Shown here: in pieces, positions 1,780 through 44,924 of the stretch
How the letters are laid out: the number at the start of each line of letters is the position of its first letter
How positions within the stretch are numbered: the first letter of the stretch is position 1
Source: Minisyncoccota bacterium
GTDB lineage: Bacteria > Patescibacteriota > Minisyncoccia > Phycocordibacterales > UBA9973
Direction of reading: 5' to 3'
Assembly (NCBI GenBank): GCA_041674285.1
Contig: JBAYVZ010000005.1
Coordinates: forward strand, 5,176-69,175
DNA: 64,000 bases
Notes under the pieces: generated by a model
The model's database searches: none
The model's input: the letters and a program-made list of their open reading frames with translations, nothing else
Told to the model about the DNA's origin: nothing
Position numbers and translations under genes: made by a program

Positions 1780-1896
1780 TCCCGTTAGAGATGCGTTGTT
1801 GTAAATTTACGGGATAGTGTAAAATAAGAAGAGGAACATATTATTAACAATAATTAACAAGATACGGAAGTCTTTGGACTTCCTATCTCTAACGGG
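1780..1896 (+). repeat. start-codon-abutting structured element (family 1), copy 1
   Basis: 5' arm TCCCGTTAGAGAT (1780-1792) and 3' arm ATCTCTAACGGG (1885-1896). Inner hairpin GATACGGAAGTC-TTTG-GACTTCCTATC. ATG follows at 1897. Confidence 0.85.
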
Positions 1897-2400
1897 ATGA
1901 TAATCAAACATAAAGAACAAAGAGTTGGAGTGTTTATTGACACAGCCAATCTATATCACAGCGCAAAAAACCTCTATAAGAGAAAGGTAAACTTTGGTGC
2001 TGTACTAAAAGACGCAGTAGCAGGACGTAAACTAGTCCGTGCAACAGCATACGTGATCACTAGTGAGGGAGGCGACGAAAAGAGTTTCTTTGAAGCTCTC
2101 ACAAAGCTAGGCATAGAGACAAAGACAAAAGACCTCCAAGTATTTTCAGGTGGAGCAAAGAAGGGCGACTGGGATGTAGGTATAGCAGTAGATGCTATGA
2201 AGATGGCACCCCGTCTCGATGCAGTAGTACTAGTAGCAGGAGATGGGGACTTTATCCCTCTCGTAGAGTACCTCCGAAATACATATGGCACACAAGTAGA
2301 AGTGGTTTCATTTGGGAAATCTGCTTCTATGAAACTAAAAGAAGCTGCCGATGACTTCCTAGACTTATCAGTGAGTCCTCAAAAATACCTAATGAGATAA
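1897..2400 (+). CDS. NYN-domain (LabA/DUF88-like, PIN-like nuclease fold) protein
   Basis: RVGVFIDTANLYHS...GDWDVGIAVDAM...VLVAGDGDFIPLVEYLR pattern of NYN/LabA proteins. Confidence 0.75.
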   Translation: MIIKHKEQRVGVFIDTANLYHSAKNLYKRKVNFGAVLKDAVAGRKLVRATAYVITSEGGDEKSFFEALTKLGIETKTKDLQVFSGGAKKGDWDVGIAVDAMKMAPRLDAVVLVAGDGDFIPLVEYLRNTYGTQVEVVSFGKSASMKLKEAADDFLDLSVSPQKYLMR

Positions 2401-2405
2401 ATTGT

Positions 2406-3320
2406 ATGGAAAAGCTTTGGCCAATCACATTAACGAGGAAAATATCTGATATACACTGCGGTGGTTTCACCATGGCAGAGGAAGAGAGTCTCGGCTTCAA
2501 AGCAGGTGAATTATTTGAGGCACCGAATGAGCTTTTTGAACTAGTGACATTTCACAAGAAAAATCTTTCAACAAATTTACATAAATACAAAGAGGTAATA
2601 ATAAAAAATAACGATTACACCGAGGTCAGACCTGGGGTTTTTGCTCATGCAGGTGCAGTTATAGATGAGCAAGTGGTCTTTAATACAAAAAATGGCTTGG
2701 TCATAGTAGAAAAAGGGGCGCATATAAATCCATTTAATTATATAGCTGGGCCAGTACGTATAGACGAGAGTGCGACAATTAACCCGCATTCAAATATTTC
2801 AAATTCTTATATAGGTAAATACTGCAAAGTGGGAGGTGAAGTCTCAAATTCTATAATAGAGTCATACAGCAACAAAGGTCATCATGGATACCTGGGTGAT
2901 AGTTATGTAGGCTCATGGGTAAATATCGGTGGGGGCGCGTCAACATCAAATCTTAAAAATACATACGGAAAGATAAAGCTAGGTGGGGTAGAGACCGGGG
3001 AGCAATTCCTAGGATCAGTCATCGCCGACCATGCAAAAATAGCCATAAATGTATCTATATATACAGGAAAAGTAATCGGCGTGGCCGCTCACGTATATGA
3101 CACAGTCACAATAGATGTGCCCTCATTTACAAATTATATTTCAAAAGAAAATATGACTATTTTACCCGTTGATATAGCAGTAAAAATAGCAGGACGAATG
3201 CAAGAACGTCGGGGTATAAATACTATAGAGGAGGACAAAGCTATGCTATCATATGCTTATAATGCCACCGAAGGTGAACGAAAGAGTGCTGGCGTTACAG
3301 AAGGTAAATTAGCATTTTAA
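2406..3320 (+). CDS. left-handed beta-helix (hexapeptide-repeat) transferase-like protein
   Basis: Repeated [LIV]-G-x4 hexapeptide pattern (IGKYCKVGGEVSNSIIESYSNKGHHGYLGDSYVGSWVNIGGGASTSN). The start codon is uncertain. Confidence 0.55.
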   Translation: MEKLWPITLTRKISDIHCGGFTMAEEESLGFKAGELFEAPNELFELVTFHKKNLSTNLHKYKEVIIKNNDYTEVRPGVFAHAGAVIDEQVVFNTKNGLVIVEKGAHINPFNYIAGPVRIDESATINPHSNISNSYIGKYCKVGGEVSNSIIESYSNKGHHGYLGDSYVGSWVNIGGGASTSNLKNTYGKIKLGGVETGEQFLGSVIADHAKIAINVSIYTGKVIGVAAHVYDTVTIDVPSFTNYISKENMTILPVDIAVKIAGRMQERRGINTIEEDKAMLSYAYNATEGERKSAGVTEGKLAF

Positions 3321-3324
3321 ACCA

Positions 3325-3459
3325 AAAAATTGCAAATTTTTTCTTCGCATATCTTTTCTAGGGTACACAAATTTTTTGCTAAAAATTTGTGAGAGTCTAG
3401 CGCCGGTCGCGCTGTAGAAGCCCCTAAAAAAGATAAGCGTGCGACAATTTGCAATTTTT
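3325..3459 (+). repeat. palindromic intergenic element (family 2), copy A
   Basis: TTCTTCGCATATCTTTTCTAGGG...CCCCTAAAAAAGATAAGCGTGCGAC with inner hairpins GTAAATTTTT/AAAAATTTAC-like and a GC-rich hairpin. Outer arms AAAAATTGCAAATT / AATTTGCAATTTTT. Ends 10 nt before the tdh ATG. Confidence 0.8.
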
Positions 3460-3468
3460 AATAAAACT

Positions 3469-43701: not shown

Positions 43702-43715
43702 CCATATACGTTTAA

Positions 43716-44459
43716 TTAGAAGTTATTTTCTTTTTTGGCTATTTGGTCTCTTACGTACCATTCCTGACCTATAGTGAATATATTACTCACAATCCAATAT
43801 AATGCAACCCCTGCAGAGAAAGTATAAGCGATAAATGCAACAAACACTGGCAATACGTAGCGAATATTTAACTGCATACTACTTGCCAATTCTTCTTGAA
43901 AAGTCTTTTTGGTATTATCTGATACAACCTCTACGTCTTTGATGGTCTTCTTTGGAGTAGCTAGGTATGCCTGGAAATATTGAGAAACACCTGCCAATAG
44001 AGCTAGGAATATGCTGTGATTCAAAGAAAGATCAAATAATCCCAAGAAATTTGTATTCATGACAACCGGTACATTGATAAAACTATAAATGATACTACTG
44101 TCTATCTTGAAATTGATAAATACATAGTACAGGGCAAATATAACAGGAAGCTGAAGTAAAACAACAAGGCAACCAGAGAATGGGTTTACTCCGTATTTCT
44201 TATACAATTCAAATTGTTTTTTTGCTTGCTCTTCTTTATTTGGATAATCAGTCTTCAATTTCTTGAGTTCTGGCTCAAGCTTTTTCATATAAATCTGACT
44301 CTGTATAGACTTCTTGGCAAGAGGGAAGAGGATGAGTTTTACGAGTATAGTCAAAATAATAATAGCAAAACCAATATCCCCAAAAGTAACCTTATCTATT
44401 AAAAAAACCAGCATATTATATATAGGCTGATAAAAAAATGTATTCCATAGTGCGCTCAT
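43716..44459 (-). CDS. yidC: membrane protein insertase YidC (short Oxa1-like form)
   Basis: 247 aa, five hydrophobic helices, LAKKSIQSQIYMKKLEPELKKLK...NPFSGCLVVLLQLPV. A TGcTACAAT -10 box sits 6 nt before the ATG. Confidence 0.9.
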   Translation of the reverse strand: MSALWNTFFYQPIYNMLVFLIDKVTFGDIGFAIIILTILVKLILFPLAKKSIQSQIYMKKLEPELKKLKTDYPNKEEQAKKQFELYKKYGVNPFSGCLVVLLQLPVIFALYYVFINFKIDSSIIYSFINVPVVMNTNFLGLFDLSLNHSIFLALLAGVSQYFQAYLATPKKTIKDVEVVSDNTKKTFQEELASSMQLNIRYVLPVFVAFIAYTFSAGVALYWIVSNIFTIGQEWYVRDQIAKKENNF

Positions 44460-44492
44460 CCGTCTATTGTAGCATAAAATTTAAGTATTTTT

Positions 44493-44598
44493 AATTCCCC
44501 TCTTGAGGGGTGCCCGATAGGGTGGGGTGGATATATTTTGTATTAAATTCAGTCCACCCCGTCTTTTGAGTACAAAAGCCACCCCTCAAGAGGGGAAT
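44493..44598. repeat. inverted pair of family-3 units (CACCCCTCAAGAGGGGAAT-type)
   Basis: AATTCCCCTCTTGAGGGGTG...GGTGGGGTGGA (44493-44532) faces TCCACCCCGTCTTTTGAGTACAAAAGCCACCCCTCAAGAGGGGAAT (44553-44598). Lies between the yidD stop and the yidC promoter. Confidence 0.8.
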
Positions 44599-44600
44599 AA

Positions 44601-44807
44601 CTACCTCACAGGATCGTAGCTATGTTTTTGCCATGGGTGACATCGGAGCACGCGCCAAACAGACAAATAAAAACCTTTAAAAAATCCATATTTTTCAAAG
44701 GCTTGTTTACTATACTCTGAACAAGTCGGTAGAAATTTACAAGAATAGTGCGATTTTAAAGGAGTTTTTTGATATAAGTTTATTAAAAATATAATTATTT
44801 TAGACAT
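44601..44807 (-). CDS. yidD: membrane protein insertion efficiency factor YidD
   Basis: 68 aa, CKFLPTCSEYSKQAFEKYGFFKGFYLSVWRVLRCHPW. Confidence 0.9.
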   Translation of the reverse strand: MSKIIIFLINLYQKTPLKSHYSCKFLPTCSEYSKQAFEKYGFFKGFYLSVWRVLRCHPWQKHSYDPVR

Positions 44808-44924
44808 CCCATTAGAGATAGGAAATGCTTACATTTCCGTTTCTTTTTAATTTAAATTAATAAATACAACCTTATTTATAAGCAAACCTACATAAAAAAC
44901 ACAAACAACATATCTCTAACGGGA
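44808..44924 (-). repeat. start-codon-abutting structured element (family 1), copy 8
   Basis: Read in minus sense: arms TCCCGTTAGAGAT / ATCTCTAATGGG (G-U wobble). Inner hairpin ACGGAAATG-TAAG-CATTTCCT. The rnpA TAG stop (44916-44918) lies inside the 5' arm. Confidence 0.85.

Follow-up and report, generated by a model that had tools for sequence, protein, structure and literature searches.

What kind of element ends, copy after copy, at the start codon of a gene, when the genes concerned are functionally unrelated? This question is raised by a stretch of 64,000 nucleotides (nt) from a Minisyncoccota bacterium (assembly GCA_041674285.1, contig JBAYVZ010000005.1, positions 5,176 to 69,175 of the forward strand), referred to here as the 64-kb window. 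A sequence-only reading had noted in it eight full copies and one fragment of a structured repeat, and had listed several roles at the RNA level next to that of a mobile element tolerated nowhere but at start codons. The last of these is borne out by empty sites, by target duplications and by independent insertions that recur; what is seen is mobile DNA and not primarily a regulatory RNA. With a probability of roughly 0.8, the eight repeats are internally deleted, non-autonomous miniature transposable elements with inverted repeats (MITEs) of a start-codon-inserting cassette of ~275 bp that encodes a GIY-YIG nuclease.

A covariance model was built from the eight window copies and run over the whole window with filters off. 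It finds exactly eight full copies (73-129 bits) and a 66-nt 5′ half copy (15594-15659, minus strand), so that the number first noted stands, and the positions of all eight agree with the earlier ones to within 1 nt. The window copies are 116-120 nt in length and consist of a 5′ arm (TCCCGTTAGAGAT), an A/T-rich interior, a 3′-proximal hairpin and a 3′ arm (ATCTCTAACGGG), after which comes ATG (8/8); the ends are perfectly complementary over 12-14 bp. The copies had been taken to stop at base −1 of the start codon. This has to be corrected by one base: the element runs from a T to an A, and its last base is the A of the ATG. The copies, termed c1 to c8, and the half copy are as follows.

1780..1897, plus strand: c1, type A, arm variant GAT, 103 bits; the terminal A (1897) is base 1 of the ATG of a NYN-domain gene.
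7936..8055, plus strand: c2, arm variant AGT/ACT, 93 bits; ATG of a PGI/SIS gene; no flanking duplication.
11618..11736, plus strand: c3, 129 bits; ATGGA on the 5′ side (11613-11617) and a rebuilt ATGGA from 11736; gene of a 293-amino acid (aa) protein without Pfam match.
23270..23389, plus strand: c4, 115 bits; ends at the start codon of the UvrD/PcrA gene.
34703..34822, plus strand: c5; ATGGA on the 5′ side (34698-34702); closing stem with a G.T wobble; gene without Pfam match.
37117..37233, plus strand: c6, type B; ATGGG on the 5′ side (37112-37116); ATG of the VirB4/TraG-type ATPase gene.
43583..43700, minus strand: c7; ATGGA on the 5′ side (43705-43701); jag ATG at 43583.
44807..44924, minus strand: c8; yidD ATG at 44807; 5′ appendage TATACTTG at 44932-44925.
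15594..15667, minus strand: half copy; TATACTTG, the 5′ arm and ~50 nt, no 3′ arm; ATG of a TrmB-family regulator gene.

The eight ATGs open genes for NYN, PGI/SIS, UvrD/PcrA, VirB4/TraG-type ATPase, Jag and YidD proteins and two genes without Pfam match, and these identities agree with the earlier view that the downstream genes are unrelated. ATGG(A/G) is found both directly 5′ and directly 3′ of the element in c3, c5, c6 and c7. The 5′ flank of c1 (TTTGG) does not repeat the 3′ flank (ATGAT), and c4 has an imperfect duplication (ATGTC vs ATGGA); the c4 flank TATAAT-AGAACCA-ATGTC shows a −10 box spaced for a leaderless start at the upstream ATG. The arms of c7, CCCGTATGAAAT and ATTTCATACGGG, display three compensated changes, and the closing stem of c6 is extended (CGCGATC/GATCGCG, with a 4-nt ATCT bulge). 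In this type B architecture, found in c6 and many other copies, the inner stem continues the closing stem directly across a 4-nt (A/T)CCT bulge. The bulged C that had been assigned to the hairpin is not found; the unpaired residue beside the 3′ arm is a T, or it is the (A/T)CCT bulge. Upstream open reading frames (uORFs) of the window copies have only 4-19 codons. An arm 13-mer, with ≤3 mismatches, has 32 matches in the window, compared with 15.6 ± 3.9 in shuffled sequences. The element has expanded in the window genome, to one copy per 8 kb; relatives have about one per 90 kb.

The flanks of the element bear on its nature. Genomes were scanned with an arm-gap-arm pattern that has no ATG requirement, one genome per species, and flanks were compared in 133 copies with usable flanks from ~120 genomes; fetched loci of related or other genomes that carry or flank element sites are given here as L-numbers. 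The flanking 6-mers match at four or more of six positions in 98 of the 133 copies, vs 3-4 of 133 in shifted controls. Four positions (p2-p5) have a flank identity of ~80%; p1 and p6 fall below this. The base immediately before CCCG is the complement of that after CGGG; 88 copies have T..A ends and 58 have C..G ends. Where the ends are C..G, the upstream repeat stays ATG and the rebuilt codon is GTG (10 cases); an original GTG has become ATG in 3 cases, and TTG has become GTG in L084, i.e., the changes follow the terminal base of the element. Thus the element is T-CCCG...CGGG-A with a 4-bp duplication, and base 1 of the codon comes from the element itself. A perfect 4-bp duplication is present in 60 of the 88 T..A copies (TGAA 30, TGGA 14, TGAG 8), and TGRR repeats flank 4 of the 8 window copies. 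In the tally of duplicated 4-mers, TGAA is found 41 times, TGGA 18, TGAG 12, TGGG 2 and TGCA 1; in most C..G copies the duplicated sequence is TAAA or TGAA. Insertion takes place in (A)TG-R-R with duplication of the 4 bp TGRR, and the host open reading frame (ORF) is left intact directly 3′ of the element.

Empty sites show the state before insertion and settle the matter of mobility. A metagenome scan with the VirB4-like protein gave 80 related loci with 74-90% aa identity, and the VirB4 start is empty in 61 of 67 relatives. In the closest relative, L121, TTATAAT is joined directly to ATGGGG (that is, AAATTATAAT to ATGGGG); the window has AAATTATAAT-ATGGG, the element, and then ATGGGAAT. The sites of c5, c7 and c8 are also empty in almost all relatives. 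At the c5 site relatives have a single ATGGA, and the change at c8 is more complex. There the rnpA ORF enters the element and stops at a TAG in the 5′ arm (44918-44916, within 44916-44935, minus strand), with the C-terminal sequence KKAGLYLSR. The RnpA of relatives ends in KK(T/A)G(I/F)L at its own stop codon, followed by a spacer of 15-25 nt, and both the native end and the spacer are gone at c8. Thus c8 has replaced them, and the C-terminus of RnpA, the RNase P protein, is remodelled and now ends at the arm TAG.

In a tree of VirB4, the filled lineages are scattered and have empty sisters (L122/L126, L132/L128). The filled sites differ in subfamily (type A, type B, coding) and in duplication (ATGGG, ATGAG, none), thus the same start codon was struck independently at least five times. 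The jag start has an independent insertion in L168. A ~212-aa gene (M(T/A/A)(L/I)(N/S)AK..QEFV) beside the type IV secretion system-like (T4SS-like) cluster is a second insertion hot spot: its start codon carries a coding copy in L132 (8966-9217) and type B MITEs in L180 (1492-1612) and L145 (9213-9334). The elements are found in at least 120 contig stretches, from Saccharibacteria, many other Patescibacteria, Omnitrophota, Planctomycetota, Deltaproteobacteria and others. With respect to a phage vector, only 3 matches were found among 2.9 million viral contigs.

Several single loci add to the range of insertions. The dnaA start codon of L189 (17537-17664) is occupied by a type B copy that has an ATGAG duplication, and the replication initiator gene is therefore also a target. 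In L030 (5898-6279, Wolfebacteria), three elements stand in tandem with ATGAAT between each, the last at a gene start; apparently, elements re-insert into the regenerated target. In L010 (3774-4159, Omnitrophota), a coding GIY-YIG copy is split by a nested MITE of the same family and the nuclease is truncated at residue 55.

The link to start codons extends beyond the window, and the condition named earlier as refuting, model hits elsewhere without a positional tie to start codons, does not apply. A copy was counted as linked when it adjoins a start codon that opens an ORF of ≥80 aa. This holds for 74 of the 88 T..A copies found across phyla and for 11 of the 58 C..G copies, and for 50 of 3000 random positions. 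In addition, in a model scan that covered 1 Mb from relatives, 10 of 11 hits stop precisely at an ATG with an ORF of 164-917 aa behind it. A constant orientation relative to the gene had been claimed. It is constant within the window; outside it is strongly biased but not absolute. The strand can be told from internal asymmetry alone in 37 copies; at start codons, 26 of these are forward and 3 reversed, and the other 8 lie elsewhere.

Ordinary gene starts do not show a comparable purine restriction at +4 and +5, and positions −12 to +17 of the targets otherwise display no clear difference from control starts. A "guide" tetranucleotide inside the element that correlates with the duplicated 4-mer was looked for, and none was seen. 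A preference for the 5-mer ATGRR, combined with lethality of insertions in genes, was considered as the full cause of start-codon specificity. Of the ATGRR sites in the window, 551 are in ORFs, 55 are intergenic and not at starts, and 19 are at start codons, thus ~26% of tolerated sites are expected at start codons; eight of eight would have a chance of 0.26^8, or ~2e-5, and the explanation was rejected. Leaderless transcription start sites were rejected as the target as well, since the −10 signal of reconstructed sites is no stronger than that of ordinary gene starts. Visible Shine-Dalgarno (SD) use had been reported to be lacking, and this is confirmed: 3 of 53 window genes have an SD-like 4-mer at −20 to −5, vs 11% at random positions. 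TANNNT is found within −15 to −5 of the start in 21 of the 53 genes, vs 14% at random positions. It should be noted that the sequence upstream of yidC (44460-44490, minus strand; L121-L197) reads TTGAnn-17-TA(C/G)AAT, 6-7 nt, ATG in dozens of relatives; the spacing of this conserved box is that expected for a leaderless mRNA.

Important for the origin of the repeats is the comparison of two near-identical sister loci, L122 (filled) and L126 (empty). Their alignment reveals a 275-nt insert with the same arms as the window copies and an interior ORF of 83 aa. The ends of this cassette are terminal inverted repeats of 12-14 bp, T-CCCGTTAGAxxx ... xxxTCTAACGGG-A. The parent has a single gene, predicted from its sequence to encode a stand-alone GIY-YIG nuclease of 83-92 aa (UPF0213/prokaryotic Slx1-like type). 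Searches with tblastn revealed more coding copies, in L168, L132, L198, L032, L166 and L109 and in L100 and L010 from Omnitrophota. Arms and duplications are present at the coding copies of L168, L132, L198, L032, L100, L166, L208 and L217. Coding copies, too, are placed at start codons of host genes, with, for example, ATGCAA/ATGCAA in L168, ATGAA/ATGAA in L198 and ATGGA/ATGGA in both L208 and L217.

The gene and the ends of the parent are interlocked. The nuclease ATG is found 5-14 nt downstream of the 5′ arm, and the 3′ arm forms the last nuclease codons and the stop, either as TCC TAT CTC TAA-CGGG-ATG or, with read-through, as CTA ACG GGA TGA overlapping the host ATG. As called, the nuclease genes stop 4 nt short of the host gene, in one case that of BipA/TypA and in another that of a 196-aa protein. 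The 92-aa database homologs start with M(D/S/N)PVRD, which is the duplicated host ATG-RR plus the 5′ arm read in frame. In L208, 6 nt separate a TACAAT box from the captured ATG, as is the case for leaderless starts.

The window MITEs align to the first ~100 nt and the last ~25 nt of the parent, with a clean gap of ~155 nt. The flanks of this gap pair with one another in the parent, the DLRKR codons (ACGGAAGCGCC) with the C-terminal codons (GGCGCTTCC). Of 9 full copies, 8 are predicted to form this inner stem, and it covaries, e.g., ACGGAAACGCTTCAAT/ATTGAAGCGTTTCC and ACGAAAACGCTTTAAA/TTTAAAGCGTTTTC. Because the gap lies between two pairing segments, the 3′ hairpin of the MITE is the long-range stem of the parent with its loop deleted. 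The 3′ arm of the parent has one extra A relative to the MITE arm pattern. The repeats are thus short non-coding sequences with terminal inverted repeats, duplications and empty sites, and they share their ends with a coding parent, as is found in MITEs. The sequence-only reading, which had not recognised a MITE, was wrong here because a mobile cassette with a protein-coding gene has given rise to the element as its miniature inverted-repeat derivative.

The 83-aa product matches the Pfam GIY-YIG family PF01541 with E = 4e-16, and three members score 52.6-59.6 bits (cut-off 22.6). In 24 members, down to 40% identity, Y5, Y16, G18, R26 and E62 are invariant and H30 and E50 are conserved at ≥90%. 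Nearest among solved structures are two structural-genomics proteins, UPF0213 BH0048 (1zg2, E = 2e-7) and EF2693; 1ywl has E = 0.004. The nuclease is a sequence relative of the UPF0213/YhbQ-type proteins, with conserved Y, Y-x-G, R, H and E, and consists of the ~80-aa catalytic core only, with no DNA-binding domain beyond it. In a 2006 survey of the superfamily, prokaryotic stand-alone Slx1-like proteins are described as a minimal GIY-YIG domain without auxiliary domains (PMC1564403). The family comprises at least 1,098 clusters at 90% identity (E ≤ 1e-5), and many members from different Patescibacteria lineages are 80-90% identical. Among representatives of 50%-identity clusters, 6,962 match at E ≤ 1e-3 and 779 at E ≤ 1e-10. 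In databases the members are named only "GIY-YIG nuclease family protein" or "putative endonuclease", or bear the wrong name "excinuclease ABC subunit C". The literature searched gave no account of UPF0213/YhbQ-type GIY-YIG proteins as mobile, bounded by inverted repeats or associated with start codons. A few domains of the family are fused to long proteins (P0132, 600 aa; P0220, 655 aa). These may be start-codon elements that have lost the stop and become an N-terminal extension of the host protein, or they may be artefacts of gene calling.

The closing stem and the 3′ hairpin fold as had been described (z = −3.0 to −4.8), and the antisense strand folds almost as well. In the predicted fold the A, often the AU, of the AUG is paired, as noted before. 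Covariation was assessed in 39 copies from many genomes. This alignment is fitted to the model, and its arms are partly fixed by the search pattern, so that the counts lean towards structure: pairing amounts to 98.9% in the outer helix, where 7 of 14 pairs have changed on both sides, and to 89% in the 3′ hairpin, where this holds for 6 of 7 pairs. The slid controls reach 34-48%, and no shuffle reached the observed covariation score. The middle helix of the model (alignment columns 103-135), 67% paired, is not supported. Stem positions 10-12 display 14 different triplets, every one of them complementary to its partner, and the orthologous copies of L180 and L145 differ by one compensatory pair change. 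The double changes, the complementary triplets and the compensatory pair thus show that pairing itself is maintained. It may be kept for the DNA, as a cruciform or hairpin seen by a structure-specific nuclease, or for the RNA. No Rfam family matches the window at gathering score, and none matches two element-containing stretches at E ≤ 10, in keeping with the earlier remark that this is no named RNA family.

The structure invites an explanation in which the repeat is primarily a cis-acting RNA leader selected by the host, which hides the AUG, provides an RNase III site or serves as an A/U-rich standby site, with mobility as its origin only. The paired AUG, the stable sense-strand folds, the 26:3 bias in orientation, the covariation of both helices with the L180/L145 change, and a genome without SD motifs are all in its favour, as is an excess of G.U-type (14) over A.C-type (7) mismatches in sense-strand stems, although this asymmetry is not significant (~p = 0.19). 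However, antisense folds are nearly equal, some copies are reversed, and relatives with C..G ends are mostly away from start codons. Close relatives, at 90% aa identity, have the same functionally unrelated genes and no element. The bias in orientation and the covariation allow for some selection on the RNA, and RNA roles may thus exist, at best as secondary ones. They are not primary, because the conserved arms and hairpin are accounted for by the ends and coding sequence of the parent and because the same sites in relatives lack the element; a host-selected leader is therefore considered unlikely. The argument against a ligand-specific riboswitch, made earlier from the unrelated genes, is reasonable for the same cause, namely that close relatives run these genes without the element.

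The remaining explanations accept mobility and differ in the enzyme. An ordinary MITE could be moved by an unseen DDE-type transposase that acts on the same ends, with the GIY-YIG gene as a passenger or an addiction or homing module. Terminal inverted repeats with a short duplication of fixed length are the textbook signature of DDE enzymes, both orientations occur, and the window has no nuclease gene. Yet in the ~2.7 Mb of fetched DNA covered by arm-pair searches, matching arm pairs enclose only MITEs or a GIY-YIG ORF. Arm pairs 200-6000 nt apart in all of this DNA were only pairs of separate MITEs, in a search whose pattern is blind to the extra-A 3′ arm of the parent. Pfam scans of 20 window ORFs gave only housekeeping genes and no transposase domain. 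The nuclease is the only ORF between the arms in at least ten independent long copies from Saccharibacteria, Paceibacterota and Omnitrophota, and, unlike cargo, its ORF extends over the two halves of the inner stem and into the 3′ arm. Such a hidden transposase seems slightly less probable still than the RNA leader. Least credible by a wide margin is a free-standing homing endonuclease gene that spreads by homing only, the duplications and the spread over many genes being rare illegitimate events. GIY-YIG is a classic homing endonuclease fold (PMC1564403), the nuclease has a weak match to a group I intron endonuclease family, and the starts of VirB4, jag and a TraC-like gene are occupied repeatedly in related lineages. 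But homing makes no target duplications, and perfect 4-bp repeats flank 60 of the 88 T..A copies; eight unrelated genes were struck within 45 kb of one genome, type A, type B and coding subfamilies occur at the same site in different lineages, and the protein has no DNA-binding domain beyond its 80-aa core.

For the start-codon cassette and its MITEs, then, a mechanism can be proposed. The GIY-YIG nuclease would mobilise the parent, and the MITEs in trans. By analogy to the structure-specific Slx1, it probably recognises or cuts a cruciform or hairpin formed by the arms and inner stem, and with this the A^TGRR junction. Insertion at a start codon would allow a selfish gene without promoter or ribosome binding site to borrow the transcription and translation start of the host, and would be a route to expression in a genome that is 90% coding, almost free of SD motifs and rich in −10 boxes just before starts. 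The host gene could be translated by termination-reinitiation, or after ribosomes from the captured ATG have melted the closing stem. Effects of the MITE at the RNA level (a paired AUG, and a short uORF from the 5′ ATG copy through the 5′ arm) would be side effects that need tolerance, and tolerability would select for the forward orientation and perfect terminal pairing.

How the element moves, and why it is so specific for start codons, we can only infer, and several points weigh against this account. Roughly a third of the copies, including c1, c2 and c8, have no duplication. The 5′ appendage (TAT)ACTTG recurs in unrelated genomes and has no matching 3′ repeat. It is found at c8 (44925-44932, minus strand), at the half copy (15660-15667, minus strand), in L137 (9880-9885) and L122 (9719-9725), and in L049, L057, L112 and L024, usually just downstream of a −10 box, and it may be a carried-over donor flank or a promoter-bearing variant of the end. 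In several copies (L198, L208) the captured ATG and that of the nuclease are in different frames, so that capture is not universal. No nuclease-coding copy exists within the window, thus mobilisation in trans is assumed for this genome. The ATGRR 5-mer alone does not suffice for the specificity, as ~26% would be expected and 84-100% is observed. Finally, excision and integration by an 83-aa protein we only infer: GIY-YIG enzymes are known as nucleases and not as strand-transferases, and a 4-bp duplication is classic for DDE transposases.

With these points in mind, we put forward, as a tentative proposal at somewhat less than even odds, that the elements represent a new class of prokaryotic DNA transposon. 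Its sole protein would be an ~83-aa GIY-YIG (Slx1-like) nuclease; its hairpin or cruciform ends would be recognised, it would insert with base precision at start codons, capture the transcription and translation start of the host gene for expression of its own gene and hand translation on to the host gene, and it would be spread across Patescibacteria, Omnitrophota, Planctomycetota and other uncultivated phyla with large populations of MITEs. At ~275 bp it would be, to our knowledge, the smallest autonomous mobile element. No description of such a start-codon mobile element was found in the literature searched.

A comparison with known systems helps to place the element. In integron attC sites the textbook consensus is RYYYAAC ... 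GTTRRRY, in which AAC/GTT face the loop side of the R box, and the sites lie at the 3′ end of promoter-less cassettes that form an array beside intI. The conserved GTT/AAC triplets suggested such a site, but this identity was rejected: the order of the boxes is reversed (GTTAGA ... TCTAAC, with GTT/AAC near the base of the stem), syntenic core genes flank the copies, and empty sites differ by the element only. Elements moved by HUH enzymes leave no duplication, have separate subterminal hairpins at either end and go in 3′ of a fixed tetra- or pentanucleotide. A palindrome-associated element of the IS200/IS605 type or a repetitive extragenic palindromic (REP) sequence or REPIN, suggested by the hairpins and the bias in orientation, was also rejected, since a duplication is present, the two ends pair mutually, and reversed copies keep the repeat relative to the gene; no Y1/HUH gene was seen, in a search that was not exhaustive. 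Homing endonuclease genes make no duplication and occupy homologous alleles, and here duplications and many non-homologous genes are found.

The Correia/NEMIS elements of Neisseria and the palindromic elements of Rickettsia, bacterial MITEs that are co-transcribed with genes, are similar in length (~100-150 bp), in their hairpin inverted repeats and short duplication, in their many copies per genome, in or next to genes, and in their origin by internal deletion of a longer coding element. The present elements differ in that the parent is GIY-YIG and not DDE, the target is a start codon with the last base of the element inside the codon, the arms are partly parent coding sequence, and several phyla have nearly identical ends. 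The seg genes of phage T4 and I-TevI-type genes are likewise selfish GIY-YIG-only genes before or between host genes, in the same orientation and with host signals; unlike them, the element described here has the catalytic core only, inverted repeats and duplications, non-coding derivatives and many unrelated loci per genome. REPINs, with their RAYT enzymes, are also non-autonomous hairpins of ~100 nt in transcribed intergenic DNA that have covarying arms and outnumber the enzyme gene. They depend on an HUH/Y1 enzyme and have neither a duplication nor a link to start codons; here a 4-bp duplication, base-precise placement and a nuclease inside the element are found. It should be noted that arms-only hairpins of 28-31 nt, REP-like in appearance, are present in two Omnitrophota loci (L074:3406-3434 and L059:3322-3350), e.g., CCCGTTAGAGAAC-GAA-GTTCTCTAACGGG.

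If the nuclease does mobilise the element, GIY-YIG would be a fifth catalytic type beside the DDE, HUH, serine and tyrosine enzymes that move prokaryotic DNA, and the lower size limit of autonomous mobile elements would be a new one. A possible function would also be at hand for part of the very large and unannotated UPF0213-type family, many members of which are from ultra-small Patescibacteria. Base-precise targeting of the start codon with regeneration of the codon would be an unusual way for a selfish gene to be expressed without death of the host. For annotation, the consequences are spurious N-terminal extensions (MxPVRD), genes misnamed "excinuclease ABC subunit C" and, now and then, fusion ORFs. 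Studies of expression in Saccharibacteria should consider that these elements put a 13-bp stem on the start codons of core genes such as pcrA, yidD, jag and virB4.

Some minor observations complete the description. The half copy is located directly downstream of a TTGACA-17-TACAAT promoter, and the same architecture is found in L013 and L027. In L145 (12835-12912), a 78-nt copy is followed by ACA and not ATG, before a 542-aa ORF with a signal-peptide-like N-terminus (TKKIISFSLL); the ACA could reflect loss of the start codon, a non-canonical start or an error of sequencing. Lastly, the yidD-yidC gap of the window has another inverted-repeat element of 99 nt (44497-44595) with 18-nt GC-rich arms, TTCCCCTCTTGAGGGGTG ... 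CACCCCTCAAGAGGGGAA. It has 52% GC in a neighbourhood of 35% GC and a weak model score of 27 bits, and a similar GC-rich palindrome is present upstream of VirB4 in L144.

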